From contig JAUXOG010000075.1 of assembly GCA_030682385.1 (NCBI GenBank), positions 1,825 through 65,824 on the forward strand: 64,000 nucleotides of DNA. The letters run 5' to 3'. Below are positions 10,890-55,070 of the stretch, one piece after another. Both the position numbers and the translations under genes were made by a program. The DNA is from Bacteroidota bacterium. GTDB taxonomy: Bacteria; Bacteroidota; Ignavibacteria; UBA10030; BY39. The notes under the pieces were generated by a model, which searched no databases, was not told the origin of the DNA, and was given only the letters and a program-made list of their open reading frames with translations. The first letter of the stretch is position 1, and each line of letters begins with the position of its first letter.

Positions 10890-11162
10890 ATGGTTTTATC
10901 AAAAGTAATTGGCACAATAGTTTCGACGCAGAAGAACGAACATCTTCAATCGCACAAAATTTTAATCACACAACCAATTGACCTTGAAGGCAAATTAATC
11001 GGCAGGGATGTGCTTGCAATCGATACAGTAGATGCCGGAGTTGGCGACACTGTTTTAGTTAACGTTGAAGGAAGTTCGGCACGGCAAATTTTAAAAGACG
11101 AAAAAATTCCGGTTCATTCAGTTATAGTCGCAGTTGTGGATGGACTTGATGTAGTTGAGTAG
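10890..11162 (+). CDS. EutN/CcmL/PduN-family (bacterial microcompartment vertex) protein. No other shell genes in the window.
   Basis: Segments MVLSKVIGTIVSTQK...VLAIDTVDAGVGDTVLVNVEGSSARQIL...VVDGLDV are characteristic of PF03319. Confidence 0.65.
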   Translation: MVLSKVIGTIVSTQKNEHLQSHKILITQPIDLEGKLIGRDVLAIDTVDAGVGDTVLVNVEGSSARQILKDEKIPVHSVIVAVVDGLDVVE

Positions 11163-12297
11163 CGGAGTAATGGCTACAGTTAATATTAAAGACTTATTAA
11201 TTCTTTCGTGCATTCCGGGAATCGGGCACAATCGCTTACGATCGTTGGTTACTCATTTCAAAAATTCAACAGATGCTTTAAATAGTTCTGCGAGGGAGAT
11301 AATTAATATTGAGGGATTTAATAAAAAATTAGCTGTAACAGTTTCGGCATTTAAAAAAAGTGGAAATTATCATAAAGCCGAACAATACGCAGTTCACCAA
11401 CTTTCAAAAATGAATAAATCGGAAGGTGGTATAATTACATTTTGGGACGATGAATATCCTGATTTGCTGAAAAAGATTTACGACCCGCCATGTTATCTCT
11501 TCATCAAAGGAAATTTTAAGAAGGAGGATAAATATTCAATCGCAATTGTAGGAACCCGGAATCCCTCAACTTACGGAGTTACGATGGCTGAAAAGTTTAC
11601 GCAGGAACTTGCTCGATTAGGAATAACCATCGTCAGTGGTTTAGCCCGCGGTGTTGATTCAGTTGCTCATAGTTCGGCATTGAAAGTCGGAGGGAGAACA
11701 ATCGGAGTGTTAGGTTCGGGAATTGATGTTATATATCCACCTGAAAACAAAAATCTATATTCGCGTATCGCTCAAAACGGTGGAGTGATTTCCGAGTATG
11801 CTATGGGAACAAAACCCGATGCCGGAAATTTTCCAAGAAGAAACCGGATTGTAAGCGGAATGACACTCGGAACTATCATCATCGAAACTGGAATTGACGG
11901 CGGAGCAATGATTACCGCTAATACGGCGCTCGACCAAAACCGTGATGTGTTTGCAATTCCCGGCTTGATTACTGAAGTCAGAGCTTTGGGCTGCAATACT
12001 TTAATCAGAGATGGCAGGGCAAAGTTAATTACAACAGTCGATGATGTTTTATCAGAGTTAAGCGCAAAACTAAAACCGCTTTTACGCGAGGTAACAAAAC
12101 ACGAAAAGAAAATAGATGTTAGTCTTTCATTATTTGAAAAGAAAATTTACGACACTTTAGACGATGAACCAATCCACATAGATTTGCTTGCCGAGAAATC
12201 GGGGATGCCTACCTCGGATGCCCTGGTAAATCTGTTAAGCCTTGAATTTAAAGGACTTGTAAGGCAACTGCCGGGGAAAATGTTTGTGAGATTGTAG
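11155..12297 (+). CDS. dprA: DNA-processing protein DprA/Smf. ATG at 11170 is the likely start.
   Basis: Segment IAIVGTRNPSTYGVTMAEKFTQELARLGITIVSGLARGVDSVAHSSAL...GVLGSGIDVIYPPEN. Confidence 0.85.
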   Translation: MSSGVMATVNIKDLLILSCIPGIGHNRLRSLVTHFKNSTDALNSSAREIINIEGFNKKLAVTVSAFKKSGNYHKAEQYAVHQLSKMNKSEGGIITFWDDEYPDLLKKIYDPPCYLFIKGNFKKEDKYSIAIVGTRNPSTYGVTMAEKFTQELARLGITIVSGLARGVDSVAHSSALKVGGRTIGVLGSGIDVIYPPENKNLYSRIAQNGGVISEYAMGTKPDAGNFPRRNRIVSGMTLGTIIIETGIDGGAMITANTALDQNRDVFAIPGLITEVRALGCNTLIRDGRAKLITTVDDVLSELSAKLKPLLREVTKHEKKIDVSLSLFEKKIYDTLDDEPIHIDLLAEKSGMPTSDALVNLLSLEFKGLVRQLPGKMFVRL

Positions 12298-12373
12298 TTG
12301 CTTATACAATCATCCATCAAACCGCTCTTCTGATATTCCATTCATTTTTAATTTTCCATTTTCCACAAAAAAG

Positions 12374-12976
12374 GTGTATATTATTTGTGCAATGTTTGCA
12401 ATAGAAAACAAAATAATAGATGAACGCATACCGTATATAAAATTTTTGTGCGATTTGGAAGTTTGTAAAGGCGGTTGCTGCACGTTGAAGGGGGGCAAAG
12501 GCGCCCCGCTGACAGATTCTGAAATTATTGAGATTGAAAATGCTATTCCTGTTGTTAAAAAATATTTAGAGGCGAAAAGTTTACAAGAGATCGAAAATAA
12601 CAACGGCATTGAAGGATTACCCGGCAATTTTACAACAGGTTGTATCGATAACAAAGATTGTGTTTTTGTATATTATGATGGCGATATAGCCAAATGTGCA
12701 TTCGAAAAAGCATACTTCAACAACGAAATCAATTGGCGGAAACCTATATCGTGTCACTTGTTTCCGATTCGTATTTCGGATTTCGGTGGCGAAGTAGTTC
12801 GATTCGAAAAAATTTCCGAATGTAAGCCGGCAATCGTTAATGGAAAGAAAAACGACATGCCGCTGTACAATTTTTTAAGCGAAGCTTTGATACGAAAATA
12901 CAGTGCACGATGGTACAAATTGTTTCGAGAAAATTGTGAGTTACATCTAAAATTAGAAAGTGAGATTCAAACATAA
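12374..12976 (+). CDS. Cys-rich hypothetical protein (DUF3109-like)
   Basis: Segments CDLEVCKGGCCTLKGG and ...CIDNKDCVF...CHLFPIR are conserved Cys patterns. The call is tentative. Confidence 0.4.
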   Translation: MYIICAMFAIENKIIDERIPYIKFLCDLEVCKGGCCTLKGGKGAPLTDSEIIEIENAIPVVKKYLEAKSLQEIENNNGIEGLPGNFTTGCIDNKDCVFVYYDGDIAKCAFEKAYFNNEINWRKPISCHLFPIRISDFGGEVVRFEKISECKPAIVNGKKNDMPLYNFLSEALIRKYSARWYKLFRENCELHLKLESEIQT

Positions 12977-14434
12977 ATGTTAAAGTTAAGTCAACATCAG
13001 AAATTAATGATGAAGCTGACACCCCAGCAGGTGCAGTATCTAAAGTTACTTCAGCTTCCATTGCTTTCTTTGGAACAGCGGATAAAAGCGGAGTTAGAAC
13101 AGAATCCATTGTTGGAAGAAGGCGCTGACGATGAGATGGAAAATCTGCAAGAAGAGCCAACCGAAGAACCACCATTAGAAGCATCCGAAGAAGTAGAAGG
13201 AGTTATCCGAACCGAGCCGGAGGAAGACAAGTACACTTTCGAAGACTTTATGAACGATGAACTTAATGGTTACAAAACATATTACGAACCTGCACCGGAC
13301 GAGGATACTAAAGATGAGATGCCGATGCCCGCCGATGTTGCACTTACACAAAAATTGCTTGATCAAATACGGTTGTTAGATTTTACAGATGAAGAAATTT
13401 TAATAGCTGAAGAAATCATCGGTAACATAGATGAAGACGGTTACCTAAGGCGTCCGCTGGAAAATATAATCGAAGATTTGAATTTGAGCAGGGATTTGAA
13501 CATTACAAAAGAACAAGCTGAAAAGGTTTTATTCCAGGTTCAAAGGATCGATCCACCCGGAATTGCCGCCAGAAATTTACAGGAATGTTTGATAGCACAA
13601 CTTGAGGTAAGTGAATTCGATGCTAAGCTGAAAGCATTAGCCGAAAAAATTCTTCGAGAGCATTTCGAACACTTTACTATGAAACATTTCGAAGAATTAT
13701 CGAGGTTATTGGAAATCAATATTGACAAGTTGAAGCAAGTTCTCGAGCTTATTCAAAAACTAAATCCGAAACCGGGCGAGGGATACATTACGCAGCAACA
13801 AAATTATATCGTTCCCGATTTTATTATTGAGCACGACAACGATGATATTATAATAAATTTAAATGATAGGAACGTTCCACCGCTTCGTGTGAATAAAGCT
13901 TATAAGGAAATGATGTCGCGGCGGAAAAAGAATTCGGTTAACGTCGAAACGAAAGATTTTATCCGTAAACGTTTCGAGGCGGCAAAATGGTTTATTGCTT
14001 CAATACACCAACGGCGGGATACGATGATGAAAGTAATGCACGCAATAGTTGATCGTCAGCGGGCATTTTTCGACACCGGTGAAAATTTGAAACCGATGAT
14101 CTATAAAGATATTGCCCAGATGATCGGAATGGATATTTCTACTATCAGCCGCGTTGTGAACAATAAATATGTGCAGAATGAATACGGAGTTTATGAGTTA
14201 CGTTATTTCTTCAGCGACAAGATTTCCACTGCGAGTGGTGAAGATATGGCAAACAAGGAAGTTAAAAAGAAGATAAAGATACTTATCGAATCTGAGTCGC
14301 CCGATAAACCATACAGCGATGATGAAATATCAAAAATTTTGAAAGAAGATGGAATGTTTGTAGCCCGTCGTACTGTTGCCAAATACCGTGAACAGTTGAG
14401 AATACCAATAGCGAGGATGAGACGGAAGATATAA
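12977..14434 (+). CDS. rpoN: RNA polymerase sigma-54 factor
   Basis: N-terminal MLKLSQHQKLMMKLTPQQVQYLKLLQLP, acidic region, and C-terminal RpoN box ARRTVAKYREQLRIP. Confidence 0.9.
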   Translation: MLKLSQHQKLMMKLTPQQVQYLKLLQLPLLSLEQRIKAELEQNPLLEEGADDEMENLQEEPTEEPPLEASEEVEGVIRTEPEEDKYTFEDFMNDELNGYKTYYEPAPDEDTKDEMPMPADVALTQKLLDQIRLLDFTDEEILIAEEIIGNIDEDGYLRRPLENIIEDLNLSRDLNITKEQAEKVLFQVQRIDPPGIAARNLQECLIAQLEVSEFDAKLKALAEKILREHFEHFTMKHFEELSRLLEINIDKLKQVLELIQKLNPKPGEGYITQQQNYIVPDFIIEHDNDDIIINLNDRNVPPLRVNKAYKEMMSRRKKNSVNVETKDFIRKRFEAAKWFIASIHQRRDTMMKVMHAIVDRQRAFFDTGENLKPMIYKDIAQMIGMDISTISRVVNNKYVQNEYGVYELRYFFSDKISTASGEDMANKEVKKKIKILIESESPDKPYSDDEISKILKEDGMFVARRTVAKYREQLRIPIARMRRKI

Positions 14435-14457
14435 TTTTAGATTTTAGAATTGGAAAA

Positions 14458-16578
14458 TCAGCGAATCAATATCATTTTCTTGACCTCTACAAACGAGTCG
14501 GTTTGTAACTTGTAAAAGTAAATTCCACTAGACAAACCGGCGGCATTCCATATAATTTCATAACTACCCATTTTCTTGAATTCATTATCTAGTGTTGCTA
14601 CTTCTTGGCCCAAAATATTGAACACTTTCAATGTCACGTAATTATCAATTGGCAATTGATAATTGATAATTGTCAACGGGTTGAATGGGTTAGGATAATT
14701 TTGATATAATGAAAAATCTGTTGGGTAATGATTGTTGTTCGGGTTTTTAACCGATAATCCGCTCGTGGTGGTGCGTAGTATTGTTCCATCCTTCCCAACA
14801 ATAGTGCCGGTATTCACATCTGTAAAAGAAATTCCAAGAAGTGGATTGTTTACACCGCTAGTTTGTTTTTGCCACGATTGACCGCCGTCAGTAGTTCGTA
14901 AAATTAATCCTTGACTGCCAGTTATAAAGCCTATTAACTCATTAAGATATTGTACAGCAAACAAATCTTCGGTCACAATGCTGGTTTCTGCATACCATAA
15001 ATCGCCTCTGTTTGTTGTTCGTAATATTATTCCTCCGTTACCGACAATTGTTCCAATAATGTTATTTGCAAATGCAATGCTATTTAAATCGTTTGGTGTA
15101 TTACTTTGTTTATTTACCCATTCAATTCCTTTATCTGTTGTGTGAAGAATTATCCCATTTTTTCCCACAGAAAAGCCAATGTTTGATTTTGTGAAAGCAA
15201 TATCATTAAGGTCGAATGTTATATTGCTTTCTTGAGCCGACCAAGTAATACCTTTGTCAGTTGTAGACTTTATTGTTCCGCTTGATCCGACAACGTATCC
15301 GGTATCTTCATTTATAAAGTAAAGCCCGTAATATGTTCTTGCCGTGCCGCTAATTGAGTCGCTGCTTTGAATTGTCCACGACATACCTGAATCTGTTGTC
15401 CGTAGTATTGTCTGGCAATCGCCAACAATTATCCCATAGTTATTTATAAAAAATATTCCATAAAGGTGTCTCCCTATCCAGTTTCGTATCCGCTTCCAGT
15501 TTGAGCCGCCATCTGTAGTGTGAACAATCATTCCATACTCACCTACAGCTATCCCAGTGGCCTGATTGAAAAAGTAAACATCGTAAAGGTTGTTCATGAT
15601 CTGAACGCTTGGATTTGTCCAGTTGATTCCTCCATCTGTCGTATGAACAATTAGTCCGTTTGTACCGACAGCCAGACCATTAGATTTATCTAAAAACTGA
15701 ACTCCATAAAGGTTATAATCTTGATTTATTGAATGATCGCTCCAGTTTAGCCCGCCATCGGTGGTTTGTATTATTGTTCCGTAATTTCCTACTGCAACTG
15801 CAGTTAGCGAGTCAATACTAAATACGTCATTTAGTACGTATGGCGTACCGCAATATTGTGCTGTCCACGTACTACCGCCATCGGTAGTGCGATAAGCGAT
15901 ATTTCCACCAACAGCAAAACCTTTTAGTGAATCTATAAAAGATAAATGATTTAATATAACTGTCGAATCGAAATTAATATTATACCAGTTATTACCCGCG
16001 TCTGTGGATTTCAAAATAAATCCTTCGGGTCCGGCGATGATAACATTATTCTTATTTAAAAATAGAACATCGGTTAAAGAGAAATGGGGTTGTACAATAG
16101 TTTGTGTAGTCCATATTTGCCCGCCATTTGTTGTTCGAAGGATCGTCCCATCCTCTCCGACCACAATACCTGTATCAATACTATTAAAATGAACTCCCAA
16201 TAAATTGCTTGATGTACCACTCAATTGAAATACCCATGTGTAACCGCCGTCGGATGTTTTAATAATTGTCCCATTGTTGCCGACTCCAATTATGTTTAAA
16301 GAGTCAAGAAAAATTATATCATTTAACGTGTGTGAAGTAATACTCGTTAGTGTAGTCCAAGTAACACCACGGTCAAGGGTTCTCAAAATAGTACCACTTT
16401 CTCCAATTGCAAACCCATAATTTGAATGATAAAATGTTAATTCTCGTAATGTATTGTTTTGAAGAGGAGGGGTTTGACTGTACCATCCGGTCTGTGCTGA
16501 ATTATTTATAGAATAAAAGACAATTAAAAATAAAAATACTAAATATTTATTAAGGATTTTAAGCATGTCATTCTCCAT
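14458..16578 (-). CDS. Secreted BNR/Asp-box repeat protein with T9SS C-terminal sorting domain
   Basis: Signal peptide. About 15 repeats of S/T-x-D-G-G-x-T/N-W. The C-terminus NPFNP...GIYFYKLQTDSFVEVKKMILIR matches Por_Secre_tail. Confidence 0.75.
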   Translation of the reverse strand: MENDMLKILNKYLVFLFLIVFYSINNSAQTGWYSQTPPLQNNTLRELTFYHSNYGFAIGESGTILRTLDRGVTWTTLTSITSHTLNDIIFLDSLNIIGVGNNGTIIKTSDGGYTWVFQLSGTSSNLLGVHFNSIDTGIVVGEDGTILRTTNGGQIWTTQTIVQPHFSLTDVLFLNKNNVIIAGPEGFILKSTDAGNNWYNINFDSTVILNHLSFIDSLKGFAVGGNIAYRTTDGGSTWTAQYCGTPYVLNDVFSIDSLTAVAVGNYGTIIQTTDGGLNWSDHSINQDYNLYGVQFLDKSNGLAVGTNGLIVHTTDGGINWTNPSVQIMNNLYDVYFFNQATGIAVGEYGMIVHTTDGGSNWKRIRNWIGRHLYGIFFINNYGIIVGDCQTILRTTDSGMSWTIQSSDSISGTARTYYGLYFINEDTGYVVGSSGTIKSTTDKGITWSAQESNITFDLNDIAFTKSNIGFSVGKNGIILHTTDKGIEWVNKQSNTPNDLNSIAFANNIIGTIVGNGGIILRTTNRGDLWYAETSIVTEDLFAVQYLNELIGFITGSQGLILRTTDGGQSWQKQTSGVNNPLLGISFTDVNTGTIVGKDGTILRTTTSGLSVKNPNNNHYPTDFSLYQNYPNPFNPLTIINYQLPIDNYVTLKVFNILGQEVATLDNEFKKMGSYEIIWNAAGLSSGIYFYKLQTDSFVEVKKMILIR

Positions 16579-16796
16579 TAATATAAAAGAAATTGTTCTT
16601 TTGTTGCTTCTATCAGTACAGCTACCAACCTAGGATAATCAACTGATTTGGCATCAACACCATTTTCTTCATAATTAACAACTTCAGATATTGCTTTACC
16701 TACATCTTCGGTAGAATCCTTATTCCAAAAATGGTTATCATCACCGTCTTGGGTAGTAGACCCAGTCCAAAAAGTTATCTGTCCATTTGTAGGCAT
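16578..16796 (-). CDS. Small hypothetical ORF (72 aa) overlapping the start of the BNR gene by 1 nt
   Basis: From the ORF track only. No recognisable motifs. Confidence 0.2.
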   Translation of the reverse strand: MPTNGQITFWTGSTTQDGDDNHFWNKDSTEDVGKAISEVVNYEENGVDAKSVDYPRLVAVLIEATKEQFLLY

Positions 16797-16930
16797 GTTT
16801 TTATTCCTTCTATCTTAATCAAAGATAAGATTGACTTTGCTGAAAATCAATGTTTTTAAACAAAAAATGAATTTTTCTATTTCCCAAAAATACTGTATCT
16901 TATGTGTGTTAAATATTAAAAGAAAACCTT

Positions 16931-17467
16931 ATGTCAAATATTATTAGATCAACAACAGTAATCGGACTGACTCATAAAGGCAAATGCGTAATGGGCAGCG
17001 ACGGACAGGTAACTGTCGGTAACGCTATCATGAAACACGGCGCTAAGAAAGTCCGCAAGCTTTACAACGACACTGTACTTGCTGGTTTTGCCGGCGCCGC
17101 CGCCGATGCTTTTACTCTCTTCGAACGTTTCGAAGACAAGCTTCAGGAATATCGAGGTAACTTATTACGTGCCGCAGTCGAGCTTACAAAAATGTGGCGC
17201 ACCGATAAATACCTCCGTCACCTCGAAGCACTGCTTACTGTTCTTAATAAAGAGCAAGCGTTAATAATATCAGGGACAGGCGAAATAATAGAACCCGACG
17301 ACGGGATAATTGCAATCGGATCGGGTGGAAGTTACGCGCTTGCTGCCGCTCGTATGCTCGTAAAATACTCCGATCTATCTACGCGTGAAATCGTAGAAGA
17401 ATCCTTAAAAGCTGCGGGCGATATCTGCATCTATACAAATCATAATATTACAATTGAAGAATTATAA
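16931..17467 (+). CDS. hslV: ATP-dependent protease subunit HslV
   Basis: Segment [24 protein letters not shown]...[19 protein letters not shown]. Confidence 0.9.
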
Positions 17468-18849
17468 TGAATAAAAAATCGAAGAAACAAAATCACCGCG
17501 AATTAACTCCACGCGAAATTGTAAAAGAGTTGGATAAATATATCATCGGTCAGGATGCTGCGAAAAAATCTGTAGCTATTGCAATCCGCAACCGGTGGCG
17601 TCGGCTTCAAGCTCCCGAAAACCTTCGTGAAGAAATTATGCCCAACAATATCATTCTGATCGGACCTACGGGTGTGGGTAAAACAGAGATTGCCCGGCGA
17701 CTTGCAAAGCTTGTCGATGCGCCATTCCTGAAAGTTGAAGCTTCCAAATACACAGAGGTCGGTTACGTTGGTAGAGATGTCGAATCGATGGTGCGGGATC
17801 TAACTGAATATTCGGTAAGCATGGTCAAAGCCCAGAAGGCAGCTGAGGTACAGGACAAAGCACGCAAGAACGCGGAGGAGAGGATACTTGATATATTGAT
17901 TCCACTTCGACGGAAGACGACTGGTGAAGCTGCACTAGAAAAACCTGAAGATGCCGAAAATATTTCATTCACCAGAGAACGTTTCAGAGAAAAATTAGCT
18001 AAAGGCGAACTCGATGAAAGGGTCATTGAATTGGATGTAACGACTGATCAAATTCCTGCTATGCAGGTTTTTGGTCCTGTTAATTTGGAAGAGATGGGGG
18101 TTAATATACAGGAAATGTTCGGCAGTATTTTACCGAAAAAAATGAAGAAGCGCAAGTTGACAATTGCCGAAGCAAAGGTAGTTATTGCCCACGAGGAAGC
18201 CCAGAAGTTGATAGATATGGATGCTGTAATTAAAGAAGCGCTGTTACGGGTTCACGACTCAGGAATAATTTTCCTTGATGAAATTGATAAAATTGCCGGC
18301 TCAAGAAGTCAGTCGCACGGGCCCGACGTATCACGTGAAGGTGTTCAGCGCGATTTGCTTCCGATAGTTGAAGGGTCGAACGTGATGACAAAATATGGGA
18401 TGGTGAAAACCGACCACGTTTTGTTTATTGCCTCCGGAGCTTTTCATATGACAAAACCTTCCGATTTAATTCCTGAACTGCAAGGAAGATTTCCAATCAG
18501 AGTTGAGCTAAACAGTTTAACGGAAGACGACTTTGTAAAAATTCTGACGATACCGCAGAATGCACTCATCAAGCAATATATCGCAATGCTGCAAACGGAA
18601 GGTATTGATCTGCAGTTTTCGGATGATAGTATAAAGGAGGTCGCAAAAATAGCGAGGGAAGTTAACGAGCAGGTAGAAAACATCGGCGCGCGGCGTTTGC
18701 ATACAATTTTGACGACTTTGTTAGAGGAGTTGCTCTATAATGCACCCGATAATCTGAGTGAGAATAAAATTGTCGTTACAAAAGAAATGGTTCAGGACAA
18801 ACTTGCAAGTATCGTGAAGAATAGAGATTTGAGCAGATATATCTTGTAA
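17467..18849 (+). CDS. hslU: ATP-dependent protease ATPase subunit HslU
   Basis: Walker [17 protein letters not shown], second-region DEIDKI and sensor motifs. The start overlaps the hslV stop. Confidence 0.9.
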
Positions 18850-18931
18850 AATTAAAAATCAAACTCATTAATGAAAGCAATCCAAATTTCTTTATGCATA
18901 TATTGATAAGCTGTGAGAATACAGTATAACA

Positions 18932-21900
18932 ATGACGGACGATTACATCCCCAAATCTTCAGATGAATGGAAATCTTGGCTTGCTGAGCAAGAGAAGATA
19001 AACATTGAAGTTTATCTCAAGCAGCCACAACGTATTATTCAAGATTACAACACTGAAAAAGAAACCACACGAGATTATATCGGTCGTGAAATATTCGAAT
19101 TATTACAGAATGCAAACGATGCAGCTGCTGAAGTAGATCAACGCGGAAAGGTCCTCATTGAACTTACGAATGATCTTCTTATAGTTGCCAATAGTGGTGA
19201 ACCATTTTCAATTGGTGGTGTTAATTCACTTCTCTTTAGCCATATTAGTCCTAAGAAGAAGCGTAAGAATCTTATAGGTCAAAAAGGCTTAGGTTTTCGT
19301 TCAGTTCTTAATTGGTGCCAACAACCGACTATCTTTAGTGGCCATCTTAACCTTGCATATCAAGAATCAAAACGTAAAATACTTTTTGATAAACTTATAT
19401 CCAAAAAAGAAGAAATCGCTACACTTATCAAGAGAGAACGAGAATATCCGGATGAAGTCATAATTCCCACTTTACCATTCCCATGTTTTATCGACGCTTC
19501 TTCAGTAATTAGCGATCAATTGTTTAACAAATTATTCAAAATACGAAATCAGAACTACGATACCGTTATAGGCATACCATTTGACAAACCGGAATACTAT
19601 ACGGAAGCAAAGAAACAGTTGGTGTCTCTAGATTCTGCTATCATGCTATTTGCAGGGTCACTTGATGAAATACTGATTCGAATAGACGATGAAATTTATA
19701 GTCATTGGATGGTGGAAGAACGCGACAAACAGAAACAAACTGCGACTATAAAATGGCATGATTCACAGAAGATCCACTGGCAGATCTATGAACATAGTGG
19801 GGTGATCAATAACACGCAGAGCAGTATAAAGAGTGATTTGGGAAATGAATATACAATGATAATCGCGATTCCGAAAAATCAAAAAGTTGATTCTTCGACA
19901 CCTTTGTTCTCTTTTTTCCCTTTAGAACTGAAATTTCCATTTCCGGTTTTTTGCCATGTAACACTTGAATTGGAAGGTAATCGAAAACATCCACGCCCGA
20001 GTGCATCAAATATTGCTATTCTAAAAGAACTCACAAAGTTTTTTGCAGAAAAAGCAAGCCAACAAGATATTAGTGATGACCCATGGTCGAGAATACGTCT
20101 CCTTGCGAGGTCAAGTGAACTTGATAAATTCTTGGCAGACATTGATTTCGACAAAATCTTAATCGAGGAGGCAAGAAGACTTAACATCGTTCCAACGTTG
20201 GGTGGGATGCATCTCACTGCATCTAAAACTAAACAAATTAATGCCAAAAAGGTTCACTGGTTACCCCAAGAGCAATTTTCTAATATTGCCCTTTCACCTT
20301 CTTCAACGGAAATAACAAATTTTTATAATGCACTTGGTATTGAATTTATTTCAAATGGTGATCTAACTGAAAAATTAAACATGGTTGAGTTTCCAGATAT
20401 TGCTGCGCGGGCAACATTGATTGCGAATTTAATTAAACATAATTTGATTCCTGAAAATCCCGTTCCCCATCTCCTAATTGAGCAATCGGGCAGTAGGATA
20501 ACTGAAAATAGTCGCACCTTCTTACAATCTCGAGAGCAGAAAGTATTTGAGAGACCCGAATGGCTTAATATTCAATTTCTCCACGATGAGCTCAGGATAA
20601 AGCTGATGGAGCAGCTTGAGTTGACTGAAGTTCGTGAACTTCGTCAGAAATTATCTCCATTTGGTGTAAATGAATATTCACTAAGTTCTATAGCTTCTGC
20701 GCTTATCGCAGAGGCGAACAAAAGGATTACGTCTGAGCCTACTAAGAAAAAAGAAACTTACGATGATCTATTTATTACGTTGTTTTATCTCTATTCACAG
20801 CGTGGTGAAGCATCATTCCCTGAGGACATTGCCGTTCCGTTACGCACAAAAGCTGGTTCTTATGAAAGTGCAAAAACACTTTATTTCAGTGAGTCGTATA
20901 GTGTGAATGGTGATTGGCTCTCGGAATTGTACAAGTTGACACCAGATAAGTTGTTGGCTAATTTAAGCGATTTGGGTGTCGATGGTAACGATCTAAATTA
21001 TATTTCTTTTCTAAAGTGGATCGGTGTGGCAGATTTCCCACGAGAAATAATCCTTGATTCAGTTGAAAACTCTTACAAAAATTATGTTCTTGATTCATTA
21101 CCATATGAACCCGATGGAATAATTCTCGGTGAATATAAATATAAAAGAAGGGAGGATTTCAATGAGCCGGAAATTAGATCTATCAAGTCCTTTGATGGGA
21201 TTGAAAATTTCCCAAAGGCTGATCCGGCCGCAATAATAGTATGGTTAGCGTTAGATTCTCGTTGTAATCAATTGAGATCGAATCATCCATCTTTTGCATT
21301 GTTAACAGATCGTCCCTCAGGAGTCCGAAGATGGAATCGTAAAACTTATACTGGTCCAATACCTCACTATGCTAAATGGGGACTTGAAAGCTCATCGTGG
21401 TTAATAATAACCGATGGATCAAAAAGAAAACCATCTGAATGCATGATTGGGGAAAAGAGTCTTGAGAAAATATTTCCATCACCCGCAAGATTCAAGCATC
21501 CTTTATTTGATAAATATCTCCATGATCCTATTATGTTTCGAAGAGCATGGGAAAATGCTGGTGTTATTCCTGATGTAAATTATTTGTCGCGTAATCAAAT
21601 CAAAGATATATTAATCGCATTGCCTGAAAAGAACCCGAGCGGTGAATCCACAGGAACATTTTACAGAAACATTCTAGATGAAATCCGCACTGGAAATTTG
21701 GAGTGGGATGGACCAGATTATGATTTTATTTCAAATGGAAAAATGTGGGGAAAAGGTCCTGAAGGATTTAAATATTATCAAGTGAATGAACTACATCATA
21801 CAGATTCGCAGCAATTCCCAGAAATACTGACTTCAAAATTAAAAATGGTTGACCTACCAAAACGTTATCGCAATACAGAGATTAAGCATGCGTTCGGAAT

Positions 21901-23119
21901 AGAGCCATTGGATTCGACAAAACTCAAGTTTACTGATATCCAATTCGAAAAAAGGCCGGAAAGTGATAGCCTTCAATCACAATTTAATCAGATTAAACAT
22001 TTACTTCTAGCTTTACGTCCACCCAAATCAAGGAAGTCAAGTGAAGTTTCTAATTTTCGTGCGATCGAGTTAGTAACATGTGCTAAAATCGAGGTTGGGA
22101 TAGCGTATGAGTTGATATCTATCAAGACAGAATTTATAGAAGCTTTTAAATGGATCATCAAAGATGGGAAAGCGTTCATTTTAGTCCCAGATACACAGAA
22201 TGCTTCATTCCGTTCAGCAGTATGTTCGCGGAGTGTCGGACAAATAGTAGCCAGTGTTTTCAATTTGGAGAATCCTACTGAGTTTGCTTCCATCATTCAA
22301 GCTGATGAAGCCGATAGACATGAATTACTCAAACAAATGTTGGGTGAAGAAGTATTGCCGGATTTAGACAAGCTTAAACAAGAATTAAAAACGGATGAAG
22401 CACCCCTTCCTCCAATTATTATTCCACCCTTAGAAAATGGTAATCACACTTCTACACCATCAGGAGGTGCAAAACCACCAATTGGATTCCCTCCAACAAC
22501 CGTTACGCCAGCTACTCCTGAACCGCCGGTTCCAATATCTACAGATACTGTAAAGATATCTCCCGAAGAACATGAACCATCCCCACCGAAGAAACCAAAA
22601 GAAGTTGTGAGGAAAAAGGAAAGCGTTCCAACATTTGGCGGAGGAGAGACAAAAAGAGTTACTAATTGGAAGCGTTGCGAAGAACTTGCTGTTGTATTTG
22701 AAGAATCAGAGATTCGTTTTCCCATTAAGGTATCAGATATCGTTGGCTACAAGGGTCCAAAGTGCGATGTGCTTAGTTTTTCTTCAGCTGAACAACGGAT
22801 CATATTCCAACAGCTATCTTCTGATGAAAAAAATATCAACGATGTCGAGCGGTTTATAGAAGTGAAAGGTAGTGTTAATGAAAAAGGTGCAATAGATTTG
22901 AAGGGTAATGAGTTGACTGCCGCCAAGATATACAGTAATAAGTATTTTTTATATCGCATGTACGAGAAAACACAAAATGAATACTATGTTCTCATTGTCG
23001 TCAATCCACTAAACCAAAAAGAAGCACTCGAAGAGATTTGGGAAATCATCCCAGATAGAGCGAAAGATGCAACGAGGTTTCACATCGAAATTGGAATTCA
23101 GGAGATGAAGAACCCATGA
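18932..23119 (+). CDS. Giant (1395 aa) sacsin/MORC-like GHKL ATPase with Pro-rich linker and C-terminal DUF3883 (PD-(D/E)xK-like) domain. Candidate defense protein.
   Basis: N-terminal motifs: [11 protein letters not shown] (GHKL N-box) and [11 protein letters not shown] (G-box). Pro-rich segment PLPPIIIPP...[16 protein letters not shown]-terminal segment: GPKCDVLSF...IEVKGS...YVLIVV (D...E.K) in a region matching DUF3883. No signal peptide. Confidence 0.55.
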
Positions 23120-23397
23120 CATACGATTACACAGAAGATAAACTCGTTCAAGAAATCACAGTCATAAAATACGATTTACCTGAAAACAGTTATGTAACCT
23201 TGAAAATATATGATGTTTTGGGCAGAGAGGTTGTTAGGTTGGTTGATGGATTCCAAGAAGCTGGTTATAAATCTATAGAATTTGATGCTCTAAATTTGAC
23301 TAGCGGTGTTTATTTTTATAAACTTGTGGTGAGTTCATCGAACCCATTGAATGCAAATAATTATACTTCAATCAAGAAAATGTTATTAATTCGATAA
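23116..23397 (+). CDS. Orphan T9SS (Por) C-terminal sorting domain ORF (93 aa). Its ATG overlaps the stop of the giant gene (ATGA).
   Basis: Segment ...[20 protein letters not shown]...[12 protein letters not shown]...SIKKMLLIR aligns with the C-terminal domains of the two BNR proteins in this window. It lacks the upstream NPFNP and any cargo domain. Confidence 0.5.
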
Positions 23398-23572
23398 ATT
23401 CAAATTTTATATATTGTAACATAAGGAAAATTAATCGACAGTCGAATAACCAACATCGAATAACGAATCCGCCTGCGTTCCAGAAAACGGAACTTCCGCT
23501 TACACTTCGTTTCAGCGGACAAGTCGGCGGACAGGTATCGAACATCCAATAAATTAATCACAGGAGATCTAA

Positions 23573-25567
23573 ATGGAACCAACAACACGTAGTTTACCGC
23601 CGAATGCCTACAAGGAATTAAAACCGGGTGAGAAATATATTCCCGTAGTTCCGGCAGGGACAATCATTCCCGAAGTTACCCCCTGGTCTTTAACTTGGGG
23701 TTTAATTATGGCTGCTGTATTTTCAGCCGCCGCCGCTTATTTAGGATTAAAGATCGGACAAGTTTTTGAAGCGGCTATTCCAATTGCAATCATAGCAGTC
23801 GGTTTAACAGCAATAACAAAACGTAAAAATGCTTTATCCGAGAATGTTATTATTCAATCTATCGGCGCTGCGTCGGGTGTCGTGGTAGCGGGCGCTATTT
23901 TTACAATCCCCGCACTTTACATTCTTCACGGTGAAGGAACGATAGATATAATACCAACTTTCTGGCAAATCTTTTTTGCCTCTCTCTTTGGGGGATTTCT
24001 TGGTATTCTATTTCTAATTCCATTCAGAAAATATTTTGTTCAAGAAATGCACGGACAATTTCCATTCCCCGAGGCAACTGCCACTACTGAAATTTTAGTA
24101 GCGGGTGAAAAGGGCGGACAGCAGGCAAAAGTTCTTGTCTCGGCTGCAATCATCGGCGGCTTGTACGATTTTGCGATTCAAACGTTCGGAGCGTGGAAGG
24201 AAGTCTTCAACTCCAAAATATTGCCGGTCTTCGATAAAATGTCGGATGTCTATAAACTTGAAGGTAAATTAAATGTCGGTGCTGCGGTTTTAGGACTTGG
24301 CTATATAGTCGGTTTGAAGTATGCTTCAATAATTGCAGCGGGTTCTTTCCTATCATGGTTTTTGCTAATTCCTGTTTTTTCTTATGTAGGTAGCGATTTA
24401 ACAGTAACTATAGGTTCAACGGCTACTAAATTAATTGGCCAGATGTCTGCCGATGAAATATTCCGAGCGTATGTCAGGCATATTGGAATAGGCGGTATCG
24501 CTATGGCAGGTATGATAGGCATTTATAAATCTCGTAAAATAATCGGCGGGGCATTCAAACTTGCATTCGAAGAAATTTTCAGAAAGAAACATATCGCCGA
24601 GCGAACAATAGTCCGTACCGAAAAAGAACTTTCGATGGGATTAGTTGTAGGTTTAATCGCAGTGCTCGCAGTATTCATATTTATTTTCTTCGCTGTTGCT
24701 GTTGTCGATACTGTGTGGTTCGCAATCACAGCATTACTAATTGTTTTGATAGTCTCTTTTCTCTTTACTACGGTTGCAGCACGAGCAATAGCTATCGTCG
24801 GAACAAACCCGGTTTCGGGAATGACGCTGATGACTTTGATTTTGTCTTCATTCATACTCGTGTCGATTGGATTAAAAGGGAGCGCGGGAATGGTTTCTGC
24901 GTTAATCATCGGCGGTGTGGTTTGCACGGCTCTCTCGATGGCTGGCGGTTTTATCACTGATTTAAAAATTGGTTATTGGCTGGGAACTACACCAATCAAG
25001 CAGCAGTCGTATAAATTTTTAGGGACAATCGTTGCAGCCGCAACTGTCGGTTTGGTAATTATGCTGCTGAACGAAACTTACGGCTTCGTCGGCGAAGGTG
25101 CGCTCGTTGCACCACAGGCAAATGCTATGGCGGCAGTAATCAAACCGTTGATGTCCGAAATGCCGGCGCCTTGGGCATTGTATATTGCGGGCGCTTTAGT
25201 AGCTCTTACTTTACAAATGATAAACGTACCGCCGCTTGCTTTTGCACTCGGCATGTACATTCCTCTCGAACTTAATACACCAATTTTGCTTGGTGGACTT
25301 ATTGCGCACATCGTTTCTACTCGAACGAAAGATGAGCCGCTAAACAACGCACGCCGTGAACGCGGAACTTTGATTGCCTCTGGCTTCATCGCAGGCGGTG
25401 CTATTATGGGTGTAGTGAGTGCAACGTTGAAATATTTCAACTTCAATTACGAAAACTTTGGTTGGCACTGGGGCGAGTCATTCGGCGGCGAATTGTTAGC
25501 AGTATTTATGTTCCTCGGTATCGCCGCCTATTTCATCTGGGATTCAAAACGCGCGAAGCCTGAATAG
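23573..25567 (+). CDS. OPT-family oligopeptide transporter
   Basis: 664 aa, polytopic. Segment MEPTTRSLPPNAYKELKPGEKYIPVVPAG...TPWSLTWGLIMAAVFSAAAAYLGLKIGQ is typical of OPT family N-termini. Confidence 0.75.
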   Translation: MEPTTRSLPPNAYKELKPGEKYIPVVPAGTIIPEVTPWSLTWGLIMAAVFSAAAAYLGLKIGQVFEAAIPIAIIAVGLTAITKRKNALSENVIIQSIGAASGVVVAGAIFTIPALYILHGEGTIDIIPTFWQIFFASLFGGFLGILFLIPFRKYFVQEMHGQFPFPEATATTEILVAGEKGGQQAKVLVSAAIIGGLYDFAIQTFGAWKEVFNSKILPVFDKMSDVYKLEGKLNVGAAVLGLGYIVGLKYASIIAAGSFLSWFLLIPVFSYVGSDLTVTIGSTATKLIGQMSADEIFRAYVRHIGIGGIAMAGMIGIYKSRKIIGGAFKLAFEEIFRKKHIAERTIVRTEKELSMGLVVGLIAVLAVFIFIFFAVAVVDTVWFAITALLIVLIVSFLFTTVAARAIAIVGTNPVSGMTLMTLILSSFILVSIGLKGSAGMVSALIIGGVVCTALSMAGGFITDLKIGYWLGTTPIKQQSYKFLGTIVAAATVGLVIMLLNETYGFVGEGALVAPQANAMAAVIKPLMSEMPAPWALYIAGALVALTLQMINVPPLAFALGMYIPLELNTPILLGGLIAHIVSTRTKDEPLNNARRERGTLIASGFIAGGAIMGVVSATLKYFNFNYENFGWHWGESFGGELLAVFMFLGIAAYFIWDSKRAKPE

Positions 25568-25590
25568 TTTCACAATTTCACGTGATAATG

Positions 25591-25624
25591 GAAATCCCGA
25601 AAGTCTAACTTTCGGGATTTTTTG
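25591..25624. terminator. Bidirectional rho-independent terminator between convergent genes
   Basis: Hairpin gaaatcccgaaag-tctaa-ctttcgggattt followed by a T run. Confidence 0.6.
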
Positions 25625-25625
25625 T

Positions 25626-26813
25626 TTATACCACCCAAATCTTCTTCTGCGGTTTGGATAAAAACTTACAACCATCTTTTGTAACCACCACTATCTCTTC
25701 TACCGTAGCGATTCCATAACCTTCGACCGTGAGTCGTGGCTCGATAGTGTAAACTTGTCCTTCTTCAATTTTTTCGTAAGGCAGATTTCCGTATCGTTCC
25801 CAACGCGGGAAAAGTCCCCCGCCGCCGTCGTGCGCAACGCGCCCGATCTGATGACCAAGTCCGTGGGGATATTCAGCGTAACCGCTGGATGTAATATGAT
25901 TGCGTGCAGCATCGTCAACTTCACAGCCCTGAACACCGGGTTTTAGTTTTTTTGCAGCGAGCTGTATCGCTTCTATAATCGTATTAAAGCCCCGAACAAC
26001 TTCGATTGGAGGAATTTTTTCACCTTTTCTTTTTATATACCAGGTGCGTTGTAAATCTGAACAGTATCCATTTTTCTTAACTCCAAAATCTATATTCAAA
26101 ATATGCCCGCCTTCAATTTTCCGGTTTGTCGGTCCTGCGTGTGCGCCAGCCGATTCAGGTCCCGTAAAAACTGCCGGACAGTGTTCTTTATCCCACGCCG
26201 GTTCGAGTCCTGATTTTTTCACTTCCTTCAAAATGAATTTAGCAACATCTTGTTCGGATTTTCCGGGTTTAATAAACTGAGAAACTTTATCGAATATTTC
26301 CAATGTAACATCAATCGAATCTTTTATCAGTTTTAATTCTGTTCCCGATTTTCTTCCTCTCAATGCCGAGATAATCGGTTCGGCTGAAATTATTCTTTCT
26401 ATAAATTGTGTCCCCTCTAAATAACTCATAAATTGCAGCCACATTCCGTGTGTGAGTCCATCCGATGTTACGGTATTTGTTGAATAATTCAAAGCTATAG
26501 TTTTAGGATTTATTCTATTCAATACTTCCAATAAAGTATCCTTTATCGATTGAACGTATCCGATAATCTCTTTGTAATGCCCATGAGTTTTAAGGTTTGC
26601 AATATCCAAACTTCCGGCAATCGCGATTGTTTCGCCTTTCGCTGTTATGATGTAGGCAGTTTGCCAAGTGCAATTTGTTCCGATAGTTACATCTATAACA
26701 GGGTCGGGTATTGTGGCGCTTTCGCGGACAAAGGTCGTCCACATATCAATTTTCTTTTCTTTTAAAATCTCAATTGCCTGTTGAATTTTTTCTCGTACCA
26801 TATTTATCTCCAT
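25626..26813 (-). CDS. M24-family metallopeptidase (Xaa-Pro aminopeptidase/prolidase-like)
   Basis: Pita-bread fold motifs: ...HGLGHQIG..., DGGGGLFPR, and an N-terminal creatinase-like domain. Confidence 0.75.
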   Translation of the reverse strand: MEINMVREKIQQAIEILKEKKIDMWTTFVRESATIPDPVIDVTIGTNCTWQTAYIITAKGETIAIAGSLDIANLKTHGHYKEIIGYVQSIKDTLLEVLNRINPKTIALNYSTNTVTSDGLTHGMWLQFMSYLEGTQFIERIISAEPIISALRGRKSGTELKLIKDSIDVTLEIFDKVSQFIKPGKSEQDVAKFILKEVKKSGLEPAWDKEHCPAVFTGPESAGAHAGPTNRKIEGGHILNIDFGVKKNGYCSDLQRTWYIKRKGEKIPPIEVVRGFNTIIEAIQLAAKKLKPGVQGCEVDDAARNHITSSGYAEYPHGLGHQIGRVAHDGGGGLFPRWERYGNLPYEKIEEGQVYTIEPRLTVEGYGIATVEEIVVVTKDGCKFLSKPQKKIWVV

Positions 26814-26924
26814 TATATTTTGTAAAAATTTACTTAAGTCGTACGACTAAAGCAAGTTGACTTTAGTAAATAATCTTTTTATCATTGCACAACGGTTTTT
26901 AGTTCTAATAAATTAAGAGAAATT

Positions 26925-28004
26925 ATGAACCTACATAAATATGTGGTAATACTAACGATTGTTCTTATTAGCGTTTCAGCTTCGCTATCGCTTCCGAGAT
27001 TTTCGGCACGAACAGGGATCAGTTGTCAGGGATGTCATATCAATCCGTCGGGCGGCGGTATGCGAAATTATTACGGTACTGTATTTTACGGCAGGCAAAC
27101 TCTTCCGGTAAAAAAATGGTTCGATAGTTTTGAAATTTCCAATTTTACATCTAAAATCAATGAATTTGTAAGCATTGGTGCCGATTTCAGAACTCTTTTT
27201 TATTATGTCGAAAAAACACGGAGCAGTTCTTTTTATCAGATGCAAGGGGATATTTACGCAAATCTAAAAATTGCCGAAGGTGTTTCGATGTATATCGATA
27301 AAGGTTTGTATAAGGGATTTGAGATTTTCGGGTTAATGAATATTTTGCCGGAAAATGGTTACATAAAAGTCGGACGATTCACCCCCGTCTTTGGAACTAA
27401 GACCGATGACCACACAAATTTTATACGCGCGAAAACAGTTTTTCAAAACAACCGAGCCGAAGATTCAGGGATTGAAGCAGCTACCGCCCCCGGGAATTTC
27501 GCCGTTACAGTTGGGTTATTCAACGGAGCAAGCAGTGGCGATTTATCGGATAGCAAAATTCGCCTATTGACCGGTAATGCTGATGCGAGATTTAAAATTG
27601 AGGAGATAAATTTTTCGATTGGTAGCTCGTTGTGGTTTAATAGTTTGAGTTCGGGAATAATGAGAATGTTTGGCGGCTACGGTTCGATTAATTACATAAA
27701 TATTACTGTTAACGGAGAAATAGATTTAAAGCAAGATAAATCAATTTTAGGATTAGGAACAAAAGAATTAATTTCATTGGTCGAGTTAAACTATTTGTTG
27801 TTCGATGGATTAGATTTGAAATTTATGTACGATTATTACGATTACGATATAAGATACAAAACCGGATTTGAGAGTCGCTATAGTTTCGGTTTCGAGTTTT
27901 TTCCGATTAGTGGAGTTGAAGTCAGACCCGTGTATCGATTATCTCAGGATAGGAACAAAAATAAAAATAATGAAATCAATTTTTTGATTCATTTCTATTT
28001 ATAA
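26925..28004 (+). CDS. Candidate Cyc2-like fused monoheme cytochrome c-porin outer-membrane protein
   Basis: Signal peptide, then a single CQGCH heme motif within about 15 residues. The rest is amphipathic beta-strand-like with alternating aromatics (porin-like). Confidence 0.4.
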   Translation: MNLHKYVVILTIVLISVSASLSLPRFSARTGISCQGCHINPSGGGMRNYYGTVFYGRQTLPVKKWFDSFEISNFTSKINEFVSIGADFRTLFYYVEKTRSSSFYQMQGDIYANLKIAEGVSMYIDKGLYKGFEIFGLMNILPENGYIKVGRFTPVFGTKTDDHTNFIRAKTVFQNNRAEDSGIEAATAPGNFAVTVGLFNGASSGDLSDSKIRLLTGNADARFKIEEINFSIGSSLWFNSLSSGIMRMFGGYGSINYINITVNGEIDLKQDKSILGLGTKELISLVELNYLLFDGLDLKFMYDYYDYDIRYKTGFESRYSFGFEFFPISGVEVRPVYRLSQDRNKNKNNEINFLIHFYL

Positions 28005-28024
28005 AATTTAAAAAGGAGAAAAAT

Positions 28025-28678
28025 ATGTTTACAAAAATAAAATTAATTAGTTTCCTAGCAATTTTGTCAGTTGGTTTTCTGTTTATCGGCGGATGCGAGG
28101 ATAAAGGTACCAATCCACCACCACATGGGCTTACTTTAAGCAGCACCAACGTAACATTAGCAGTAGGTGCCTCAACCAATATTACAGTGTCGGGTGGAAT
28201 TACACCTTACGACATACACAAAGACCCGGATACAACAATAGCGAAGGCAATTTTATCGGGTTCGACTTTAACAATCACAGGAGTTAGAGCAGGTCAAACA
28301 TCCGTATTAGTCCGCGACAAGCGTGAACCTGAGCGGGATACAGTGCGTGTTTATATAACTGTTACCGCAATAAGTCAGGTCTCTTTTTCCACCCAAATTC
28401 AACCGATATTCAACGCAAGTTGTACCGGTTGTCACGGAAGCTCTGGCGGGCTGAACCTTAGTGCCAGCGTCAGTCATGCAAACTTGGTAAATGTAAATGC
28501 CCAATCGAGTTGCACAACTCTTAAAAGGGTTTTGCCAACGAATGCGAGCCAAAGTGTGCTATATCTAAAAGTTGCCGGAACCGATTGTGGAAACCGTATG
28601 CCTCAGGGGGGCAGTTTACCAACTCAACAAATAAATTTGATAAACGATTGGATAACTCAAGGTGCCTTAAATAATTAA
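28025..28678 (+). CDS. Lipoprotein with Big_2-like domain and PSCyt1-like monoheme cytochrome c domain
   Basis: Lipobox ...FLFIGGC. Segment IQPIFNASCTGCHGSSGG, then CTTLKRV...DCGNRMPQGG. Confidence 0.45.
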   Translation: MFTKIKLISFLAILSVGFLFIGGCEDKGTNPPPHGLTLSSTNVTLAVGASTNITVSGGITPYDIHKDPDTTIAKAILSGSTLTITGVRAGQTSVLVRDKREPERDTVRVYITVTAISQVSFSTQIQPIFNASCTGCHGSSGGLNLSASVSHANLVNVNAQSSCTTLKRVLPTNASQSVLYLKVAGTDCGNRMPQGGSLPTQQINLINDWITQGALNN

Positions 28679-44326: not shown

Positions 44327-44925
44327 AGCATCAGCATTTCTTTGCCGAGCCTGGGTTTTACAGAAGTTTTTGGAATTTCAGAATAAATTAGTTTAAATGT
44401 TTTAGATAAATGTGATTGAATTTCTTTAATATCGACAGCAAATGGTGGACCGCCGTCGCGATTATCAATAGGAAAAAAAAGCCCGATAAATATTCCACCG
44501 GGTTTGAGCATGCGTTGGACATTATCGAGAAATTCTATCCGTCGTTCAGTGTCGATGGCGCAGTAGGTTACATACTCTAATACATAATCGAACTTGTGTA
44601 ATAATTTACCGGGTAATTCAAAAACATTCGCTTCGATTGTTTCGACATGTATCTTTGCTTTTTTTGCGAGCCTTCGGGTTTCCCGTATCGCACTCGCCGA
44701 AAAATCAATGGCAGTTACAAGATAATTTTGTTTTGCAAACAGTATTGCATCATGCCCTCTGCCGCAACCGATTACTACAATTTTCCCTGAATTTTCTAAT
44801 TTGCCAGATTTGAGCAATGCTTCAAATACCGGTGTTGGTGTGCCTAAATCCCAATCGTCGGTTCTATGTTTATAGCGATGTTCCCAATATTCAGGACTGC
44901 TAACGTCAGTAATTATTTTATTCAT
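44311..44925 (-). CDS. Class I SAM-dependent methyltransferase (TPMT-like)
   Basis: Motif I VVIGCGRGHDAILFAKQNYLVTAIDFS. Confidence 0.7.
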   Translation of the reverse strand: MNKIITDVSSPEYWEHRYKHRTDDWDLGTPTPVFEALLKSGKLENSGKIVVIGCGRGHDAILFAKQNYLVTAIDFSASAIRETRRLAKKAKIHVETIEANVFELPGKLLHKFDYVLEYVTYCAIDTERRIEFLDNVQRMLKPGGIFIGLFFPIDNRDGGPPFAVDIKEIQSHLSKTFKLIYSEIPKTSVKPRLGKEMLMLWKKK

Positions 44926-54266: not shown

Positions 54267-55070
54267 TTAAAAGATTAATGAAAAAGGCAAACTATCTTTT
54301 TGCTCATTATATTTTGTTTTGATTTCCTCAATAACTATTGGATTCTTAGAAAGTAAGGCCCAAATTGCTCCTTGAATTCGATTTAACTTAACATCTTCTT
54401 GACTTGACAATTTCATATTAATTACAAAATTAGCTTCCTTTTTATATTCTTCAATCAACGCTTGATTATCAGATTGAGCTGAACCCACTACAACTGAAAA
54501 TGCAAAAGCTTCTTCCAAAAAGTTCCTTTCACCCTCATAATCTTTAAATGATAATGCTGCAACACAGAGTTTCATTGATATGCTCTTGCCTTCAATCAAC
54601 TTATTAGGATAGAAAAACCGAGCCGTGATTGAAGCAATCTTGTTTATGCTTACGTCATATTTGGTTTTATAATTATATCCAGCCACAGGATTACCTTGCG
54701 CAGATAAATAGTAGCATATTAAATCTGTAAATGAATTTGTAAAAGCAGTATCCTTGTCGATAGAATTATAGAAATACTTAATTAGTTCTTCTTTATTATC
54801 AACTAATATCTTAAAAGAATCCGATTTTATTTCTAACTGGTTTTGTAAGAGATAATCTAAAGCTACTCTGTTTTGTTGGACAAAATTGTGTAAAAAATGA
54901 GATGAATCTACAGTATCAACTGCCATTACAGAATACTTCTTATCGCCGTACTCCATAACATTGACTTTAAATATATTTTTTGAAAAGTCTTTTATATCTT
55001 GCATATTTTCATTTTGTGCAAAAAGACTAAAAGATAAAACGAGTAGAGAGACACAAATTATTTTTTTCAT
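54267..55070 (-). CDS. Secreted hypothetical protein
   Basis: Signal peptide. Confidence 0.4.
   Translation of the reverse strand: MKKIICVSLLVLSFSLFAQNENMQDIKDFSKNIFKVNVMEYGDKKYSVMAVDTVDSSHFLHNFVQQNRVALDYLLQNQLEIKSDSFKILVDNKEELIKYFYNSIDKDTAFTNSFTDLICYYLSAQGNPVAGYNYKTKYDVSINKIASITARFFYPNKLIEGKSISMKLCVAALSFKDYEGERNFLEEAFAFSVVVGSAQSDNQALIEEYKKEANFVINMKLSSQEDVKLNRIQGAIWALLSKNPIVIEEIKTKYNEQKDSLPFSLIF

Follow-up and report, generated by a model that had tools for sequence, protein, structure and literature searches.

A probable single-gene Tiamat (tmtA) cassette inserted among core genes of an Ignavibacteria-like genome

Tiamat is a defence system described by Millman et al. in 2022, with its mechanism listed as unknown (PMC12926258). 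The supplements of the preprint (10.1101/2022.05.11.491447) give it as system SG165 'Tiamat' of Bacillus cereus FORC_005, flagged as verified and consisting of a single gene, TmtA, with a product of 1590 amino acids (aa) annotated as 'Hsp90, DUF3684, DUF3883' (IMG 2641244160); homologues across many phyla are listed in Table S20. The system is absent from the main text of the preprint, and the data are found in the supplementary tables. Tiamat has been classed with the single-gene PD-(D/E)XK systems (bioRxiv 2024.10.26.620412). We analyzed an open reading frame (ORF) of 1395 aa in a 64,000-nucleotide stretch of contig JAUXOG010000075.1 (assembly GCA_030682385.1), which is referred to as the window. 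The encoded protein is almost certainly a TmtA of the Tiamat family, and the ORF is probably tmtA in the full sense, the single gene of a Tiamat anti-phage system, present as an accessory cassette in the genome of an Ignavibacteria-like bacterium. This placement of the source of the window comes from the relatives of its HslU.

Other described proteins share parts of this architecture. In the paraMORC3 proteins (Iyer, Abhiman and Aravind 2008, PMC2292703), a GHKL+S5 module is joined to a domain of the restriction-endonuclease fold at the C-terminus, which carries an E-D-ExK signature. These proteins are prevalent in Bacteroidetes and Proteobacteria, and some of their genes stand alone, without conserved neighbours (PMC2292703). 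The window gene, compared by description only, fits this account, but the best structural match of its ATPase is sacsin SR1 and not MORC. The DUF3883 domain was placed in the PD-(D/E)XK superfamily by Steczkiewicz et al. (PMC3424549), and it is the catalytically active, DNA-cleaving domain of the restriction enzyme YenY4I (PMC6765204). This C-terminal nuclease family is common to the window protein, YenY4I, McaZI and the helicase HmaA; in the latter three, the nuclease is driven or targeted by an SNF2 helicase or by PUA/DUF3427 reader domains, and not by a GHKL ATPase.

The ORF starts with ATG at position 18932, its stop codon ends at 23119, and it runs uninterrupted on the forward strand, as do all features of the cassette given below. 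It was deposited as 'MAG: DUF3883 domain-containing protein [Bacteroidota bacterium]', and an earlier, sequence-only reading of the window had proposed it as a candidate defence gene. This proposal is supported, and the family proves to have a name already. The PADLOC-DB TmtA model PDLC03964 matched aa 7-1149 with its positions 3-1139 of 1538 (E = 7.5e-239, 794 bits). Six further PADLOC TmtA models also matched, and the strong PADLOC matches of the protein were to TmtA models only. The verified B. cereus TmtA was aligned by BLASTP at 28% identity (E = 3e-44), colinear with window aa 28-432, in a comparison covering the N-terminal 399 of its 1590 residues. Common to both proteins are the motifs ELLQNA.D, AN.G.PF, GG..SL, SPK, IG.KG.GFRS.L.W and H.T.EL.GNR. 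Both are the product of one giant gene with the same order of parts, an Hsp90/sacsin-like GHKL domain, a long middle region and DUF3883; they differ in length (1395 versus 1590 aa) and in host, here an uncultured Ignavibacteria-like organism. Pfam DUF3684, listed for the verified TmtA, was not detected in the window protein at E <= 1, while the TmtA profile does cover the middle region.

The window gene also stands alone, like the verified system. Its flanks are hslU on one side and a remnant ORF followed by an OPT transporter gene on the other, and a homologue with 81% identity is solo as well, with the caveat that traces of a donor neighbour (an hsdR stub, see below) persist at the cassette end. 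In sum, the window gene is a divergent further member of the known Tiamat family, a call that is in itself routine for PADLOC.

Residues of both enzymatic domains are invariant in an alignment of 68 full-length homologues, which extends down to 21% identity. A search of 5.8 billion proteins yielded 215 relatives, and an exhaustive HMMER search with aa 1-1150 yielded 476 clusters (50% identity) at E <= 1e-30. The GHKL assignment of the sequence-only reading was borne out by NCBIfam NF047352 ('sacsin N-terminal ATP-binding-like'), which matched aa 52-134 with 72 bits against a cutoff of 50. The sacsin/Hsp90-like ATP-binding domain (aa ~48-240; 19073-19651) has the N-box E..N..D, the motif II glycine and the G-rich lid of a Bergerat fold. 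Invariant residues are E56, N60 and D63 of the N-box (ELLQNANDA, aa 56-64), N87 and G89 of motif II, K108, and G116 and G119-L-G-F-R123 of the lid (G2 box G116-x-K-G-L-G-F-R123, located as GQKGLGFRS at aa 116-124). H342 and R351, in the beta-rich, transducer/Hsp90-middle-like second half of the ATPase module (aa ~241-400; 19652-20131), are invariant too.

The description of this module as MORC-like holds at the level of the fold only, which is similar to Hsp90, MutL and sacsin. The ATPase model is nearest to sacsin and SMCHD1, and the best structural match, and nearest solved structure, is sacsin SR1 (PDB 5V44). The MORC-specific GHKL+S5 signature (a Pfam match of the HATPase_c_3 type) was not found in the window protein. 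In contrast to MORC, SMCHD1 and MutL, the window protein has NxG instead of DxG in motif II, is without CW, coiled-coil or hinge domains and gave no Pfam match to a MORC-type HATPase. A sequence-profile search of the PDB with the 68-sequence alignment returned one match, a designed protein that was rejected as spurious, and no solved relative was detectable by sequence.

The C-terminal domain (aa 1246-1395; 22667-23116) is a predicted PD-(D/E)XK nuclease. Pfam NOV_C, formerly DUF3883, matched aa 1300-1350 (E = 6e-8, above the gathering score), in agreement with the earlier assignment and with the fold, and the putative catalytic residues E1257, D1279 (in CDVLSF), E1310 and K1312 (both in IEVKG) are invariant, as suits a member of this superfamily. 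The ATPase module and the nuclease are separated by a middle region of ~750 aa with mixed alpha/beta structure, presumed to be a scaffold or sensor (20132-22381), and by a Pro/Thr-rich linker that is predicted to be flexible (aa 1151-1245; 22382-22666). The linker is 22% Pro, contains the PLPPIIIPP...PEPPVP stretch noticed earlier and is the least conserved segment (conservation 0.24). In AlphaFold2 models made from homologue alignments, the predicted local distance difference test score (pLDDT) was 89.3 for aa 1-1150 and 88.1 for aa 1225-1395, with low values at the start of the latter model, in the linker. The middle region is well modelled and has no convincing structural relative and no recognised catalytic motif; HExxH is absent from it despite weak zincin-like structural matches. 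The N-terminus of the protein is hydrophilic, consistent with the claimed lack of a signal peptide. Minus-strand ORFs within tmtA (19879-20247, 21988-22296 and 22444-22725) were regarded as shadow ORFs.

Against the two closest homologues compared (those of loci L089 and L001, 80-81% identity), the ratio of non-synonymous to synonymous substitution rates (dN/dS) was 0.15-0.16 overall, 0.07-0.14 in the two enzymatic domains, and highest in the linker (0.38-0.40). Judged by these ratios, tmtA is a selectively maintained, functional gene.

Sequence and models show a PD-(D/E)XK nuclease and a GHKL ATPase module in one protein. The active-site residues of both are intact and invariant, and a large scaffold with a flexible tether connects the two. 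By analogy with MutL, MORC, topoisomerase II, Hsp90 and the paraMORCs (PMC2292703), ATP binding would close or dimerise the GHKL module. The middle region would sense infection, through either a DNA structure or a protein of the phage, and this cue would set off the conformational switch. The switch in turn would release or position the tethered nuclease to cut DNA, with direct phage DNA cleavage or abortive infection as the outcome. The label 'restriction-modification (R-M)-like', which had been mentioned for proteins of this kind, is not supported here: as had been stated, neither a methyltransferase nor a partner gene is adjacent, and no methyltransferase was found among the 10 neighbouring ORFs scanned with Pfam (11155-28678). 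Without a methyltransferase, the system cannot tell self from non-self by a linked methylation mark. We put forward this specific switch-and-cut scheme tentatively, and its chances of being correct in all parts may be somewhat below even.

An unlikely, though not negligible, alternative is that TmtA is a sacsin-type conformational sensor instead of a restriction-like, ATP-hydrolysing enzyme, and that eukaryotic relatives descend from such a protein. Motif II has an invariant Asn, which is also present in the verified TmtA ('ANNGNPF') and in sacsin; this residue could mean that a non-ATP nucleotide or signal is bound, or that nucleotide is bound without hydrolysis. Recognition of a phage protein by the ~750-aa middle scaffold could then set the tethered nuclease free and lead to abortive infection, and eukaryotic sacsin and NO VEIN (GHKL module plus NOV_C) could derive from a bacterial immune protein of this kind. 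In eukaryotic sacsin, the module is repeated and the protein ends in DnaJ/HEPN, not in a PD-(D/E)XK domain. To our knowledge, neither eukaryotic sacsin nor plant NO VEIN is known as an immune nuclease.

Presence of tmtA between hslU and the OPT gene is not consistent among relatives. The upstream gene order in the window is dprA, rpoN, a minus-strand gene for a BNR-repeat protein with a type IX secretion system (T9SS) sorting tail, hslV and hslU, and downstream are the OPT transporter gene and an M24 peptidase gene; the hslVU and OPT flanks had been named correctly before. In the closest relative (L009; 98.7% nucleotide identity in dprA, 97.3% in rpoN), OPT follows hslU after 106 bp, and the two genes are also directly adjacent in L011, L012 and L013. 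A further relative, L010, has an intact T9SS cargo gene of 443 aa between them. DNA homology to the tmtA-less relatives ends at 18848 (L009) and 18863 (L010), and homology to L010 resumes at 23158. From this gap (18863-23158), it follows that ~4.3 kb replaced ~1.1 kb, which removed the first ~360 codons of the cargo gene. The C-terminal sorting domain of the resident gene survives as a remnant (23158-23397; Pfam Por_Secre_tail), which matches the final 89 aa encoded by the intact L010 gene at 68% aa identity. As read from these alignments, the tmtA gene entered between hslU and OPT on a 4.3-kb segment and deleted the 5' part of the T9SS cargo gene. L089, which is from another sample, also has a tmtA at this site (80% aa identity), and its junctions are those of the window. 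The insertion is thus an old one, and it is polymorphic among relatives. The sequence-only reading had named two outcomes that would speak against it, failure of the domain profiles and universal presence of the gene at this locus. In fact, the profiles match, and the gene is accessory, with homologues at unrelated loci.

The non-coding segment upstream of tmtA (18864-18931) arrived with the cassette and probably contains the tmtA promoter and ribosome-binding site. It is 92% identical in L089 and absent from L009, L010, L001 and L090. Scans for promoters and terminators found fewer sites than in shuffled controls and, in this spacer, none at all, sigma-70-like sites included. No integrase or transposase was seen among the scanned genes flanking the insert, and no flanking repeats were found. 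Rfam families and tRNAs are missing from the window, and a tRNA-type integration site is therefore not available.

Traces of the donor are visible at the downstream end of the cassette. The 81%-identical homologue, P0002, is flanked by genes for an M50 and an M17 peptidase, a housekeeping context unrelated to that of the window, and homology of the two cassettes extends over window positions 18938-23159, from ~6 nt inside the start codon to ~40 bp past the stop codon. In both cassettes, the tmtA stop codon overlaps (ATGA) the start of a second gene with the sequence MTYDY(T/S)EDKLVQ. In the window, this is a stub of 13 codons (23116-23154), and the stub is also found directly after tmtA at the unrelated locus L001. 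In L090, which has a 70% homologue, the reading of the stub continues as a real gene, again overlapping the tmtA stop codon (ATGA). Five plasmids carry genes annotated as 'type I restriction endonuclease subunit R' whose N-termini match the first 45 residues of the L090 gene product, with a best E of 3e-10. The stub thus stems from the start of a type I restriction hsdR gene of the donor, and the cassette was cut out of an island linked to type I R-M.

The stub and the surviving T9SS sorting domain are fused in frame, giving an ORF of 93 aa (23116-23397) that the sequence-only reading did not contain. It shares the ATGA overlap with the tmtA stop codon and is apparently translationally coupled to tmtA. 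It is without a signal peptide, and is kept in frame in L089 as 85 aa, after an in-frame deletion of 8 codons; dN/dS between the window and L089 is 0.24 (18.5 synonymous versus 22.5 non-synonymous differences). The ORF looks like debris, yet is more constrained than a pseudogene would be, and it fits no model yet.

A direct repeat of 16 nt (14/16 identical) brackets tmtA exactly, with ATGACGGACGATTACA at 18932-18947 (the tmtA start) and ATGACATACGATTACA at 23116-23131 (the start of the hsdR stub). Its position is striking, but it is probably due to chance or to shared start-codon context, because L090, whose tmtA starts differently, is without it.

Elsewhere, homologues occupy loci that have no relation to this one, and most of them are part of defence islands or of operons for type I R-M. 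L005 (PADLOC-checked) has AbiEi/AbiEii, a DrmC-like PLD protein, TmtA, HmaA, CBASS and DUF1156, and L006-L008 have nSTAND3, AbiEii, PLD, TmtA, HmaA, HD proteins and DUF1156. The L091 locus contains TmtA, HmaA and SLFN/AlbA; L092 contains a kinase, two methyltransferases, another NOV_C protein and an integrase; and L093 an integrase, HsdM, HsdS, an unknown gene, TmtA, SLFN/AlbA and HsdR. In the clade of ~50% identity, a small gene precedes tmtA at L005 2538-2945, L006 9439-9885 and L091 2-334. In L005 and L006, it encodes a DrmC-like PLD protein of 135-148 aa, and the L091 ORF is partial. Downstream of tmtA is an HmaA-type SNF2 helicase ending in NOV_C (L005 7424-10972, L006 14540-18097, L091 4730-8428). 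PLD-TmtA-HmaA may be a conserved module rather than chance island neighbours. Directly beside tmtA homologues in defence-type loci are also large ORFs (L090 46-3603, 1185 aa; L093 7309-8973, 554 aa; L091 8440-12234, 1264 aa) that had no Pfam or PADLOC match among those tested and are candidate uncharacterised defence genes.

These neighbours raise the question of whether tmtA depended on partners in the donor, either a translationally coupled HsdR or the PLD nuclease together with the HmaA helicase, in which case the lone copy in the window would be an orphaned component, inert or reduced in activity. The overlap of the hsdR start with the tmtA stop in L090, together with the stub that survives in the window and in L001, is in keeping with such dependence, and so are the position of TmtA inside a type I R-M operon in L093 and the recurrence, in the 50%-identity clade, of HmaA downstream at three loci and of the DrmC-like PLD upstream in L005 and L006, with the PLD gene overlapping the tmtA start in L005. 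However, unrelated defence genes embedded in type I R-M loci are a common island layout and no proof of functional coupling, and Tiamat was validated as a single gene. Moreover, the solo copies in two unrelated housekeeping contexts (the window and L089; L001-L004) are full-length, have kept all their catalytic residues and evolve with a dN/dS of ~0.15 despite loss of the neighbour. We consider orphaning a poor explanation, with perhaps a small chance of being right.

Still less probable is a selfish element or one of conflict between mobile elements, whose nuclease would act chiefly on plasmids or other mobile DNA, or would be toxic and thereby stabilise the locus that encodes it. Homologues do occur on integrase-bearing islands and on 15 plasmids (the matches of the plasmid search were weak, and just two were near full length), the distribution across many phyla is patchy, and no immunity or modification gene is linked. 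Against this, the family member flagged 'Verified' in the supplement protects against phage, no mobility gene accompanies the cassette here, and purifying selection with long retention in two lineages at a chromosomal site fits a host-beneficial function. A housekeeping role as a sacsin/Hsp90-like chaperone or MutL-like DNA-repair protein, to which the fold, the hslVU neighbours (protein-quality-control genes) and the native-like composition might point, is scarcely credible for a gene that is missing at the locus in four relatives, the nearest included, has homologues at unrelated loci and in defence islands, carries an invariant nuclease active site unexpected for a chaperone and has strong PADLOC matches to TmtA models only.

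Several observations nevertheless weigh against an accessory, defensive tmtA. Identity to the verified TmtA is just 28% over the compared N-terminal part. The adenine-contacting Asp of DxGxG is replaced by the invariant N87 ('ANSGEPF'), and ATP hydrolysis is therefore not assured. The donor-context hints (hsdR stub; PLD and HmaA) suggest that some family members may need partners that are absent here. Nor does the gene look foreign within the window: its GC content (0.379) equals that of the window (0.379), GC at third codon positions (GC3) is about one standard deviation low and the codon-usage distance is average, so transfer is not revealed by composition. The immediate surroundings are housekeeping genes and not a defence island, and tblastn of the window protein against a phage collection gave no match. 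Finally, because the mechanism of Tiamat is listed as unknown (PMC12926258), the mechanistic steps proposed above are analogy only. We consider it likely, with less assurance than the family assignment, that the tmtA gene provides active anti-phage defence in this organism; the defence-island contexts of homologues and the accessory distribution lend this indirect support.

Nucleotide identity to L009 is 97-99% in dprA and rpoN versus 88-92% in hslVU and OPT (window 16919-18848 and 23537-25565), which suggests that homologous recombination replaced the whole region around tmtA with that of a more distant lineage. The gene for the BNR-repeat protein with a T9SS sorting tail (706 aa; 14458-16578, minus strand), which separates rpoN from hslV in the window, is missing in L009 and L089, where rpoN directly adjoins hslV; by this comparison, it is another lineage-specific insertion, at a distance of a few kb from tmtA. 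Two adjacent minus-strand ORFs of ~270 aa (54267-55070 and 55305-56135) have a GC content of 0.29 and a GC3 of 0.20-0.24 versus a window mean of 0.38; they had no Pfam match and may have been recently acquired. Besides TmtA, the window encodes one large PD-(D/E)XK protein, an AddB-like helicase-nuclease (1091 aa; 44918-48193, minus strand; ADDB_N, UvrD_C, PDDEXK_1), which is the product of an ordinary recombination-repair gene.

For a family validated in 2022, with its mechanism listed as unknown, a divergent member from Ignavibacteria adds little conceptually. Its remaining value lies in that unsolved mechanism, in the map of invariant residues, in the Asn-for-Asp substitution and in the clean reconstruction of a bare ORF transplanted between core genes. 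Testable handles are provided by the compact list of invariant residues for both enzymatic domains, by a confident model with an ATPase nearest to sacsin and SMCHD1, by the evidence that the gene leaves islands linked to type I R-M as a bare cassette of ORF size, and by the natural presence/absence polymorphism in close relatives. Defence genes can stand alone among core genes, where island-based searches would miss them.

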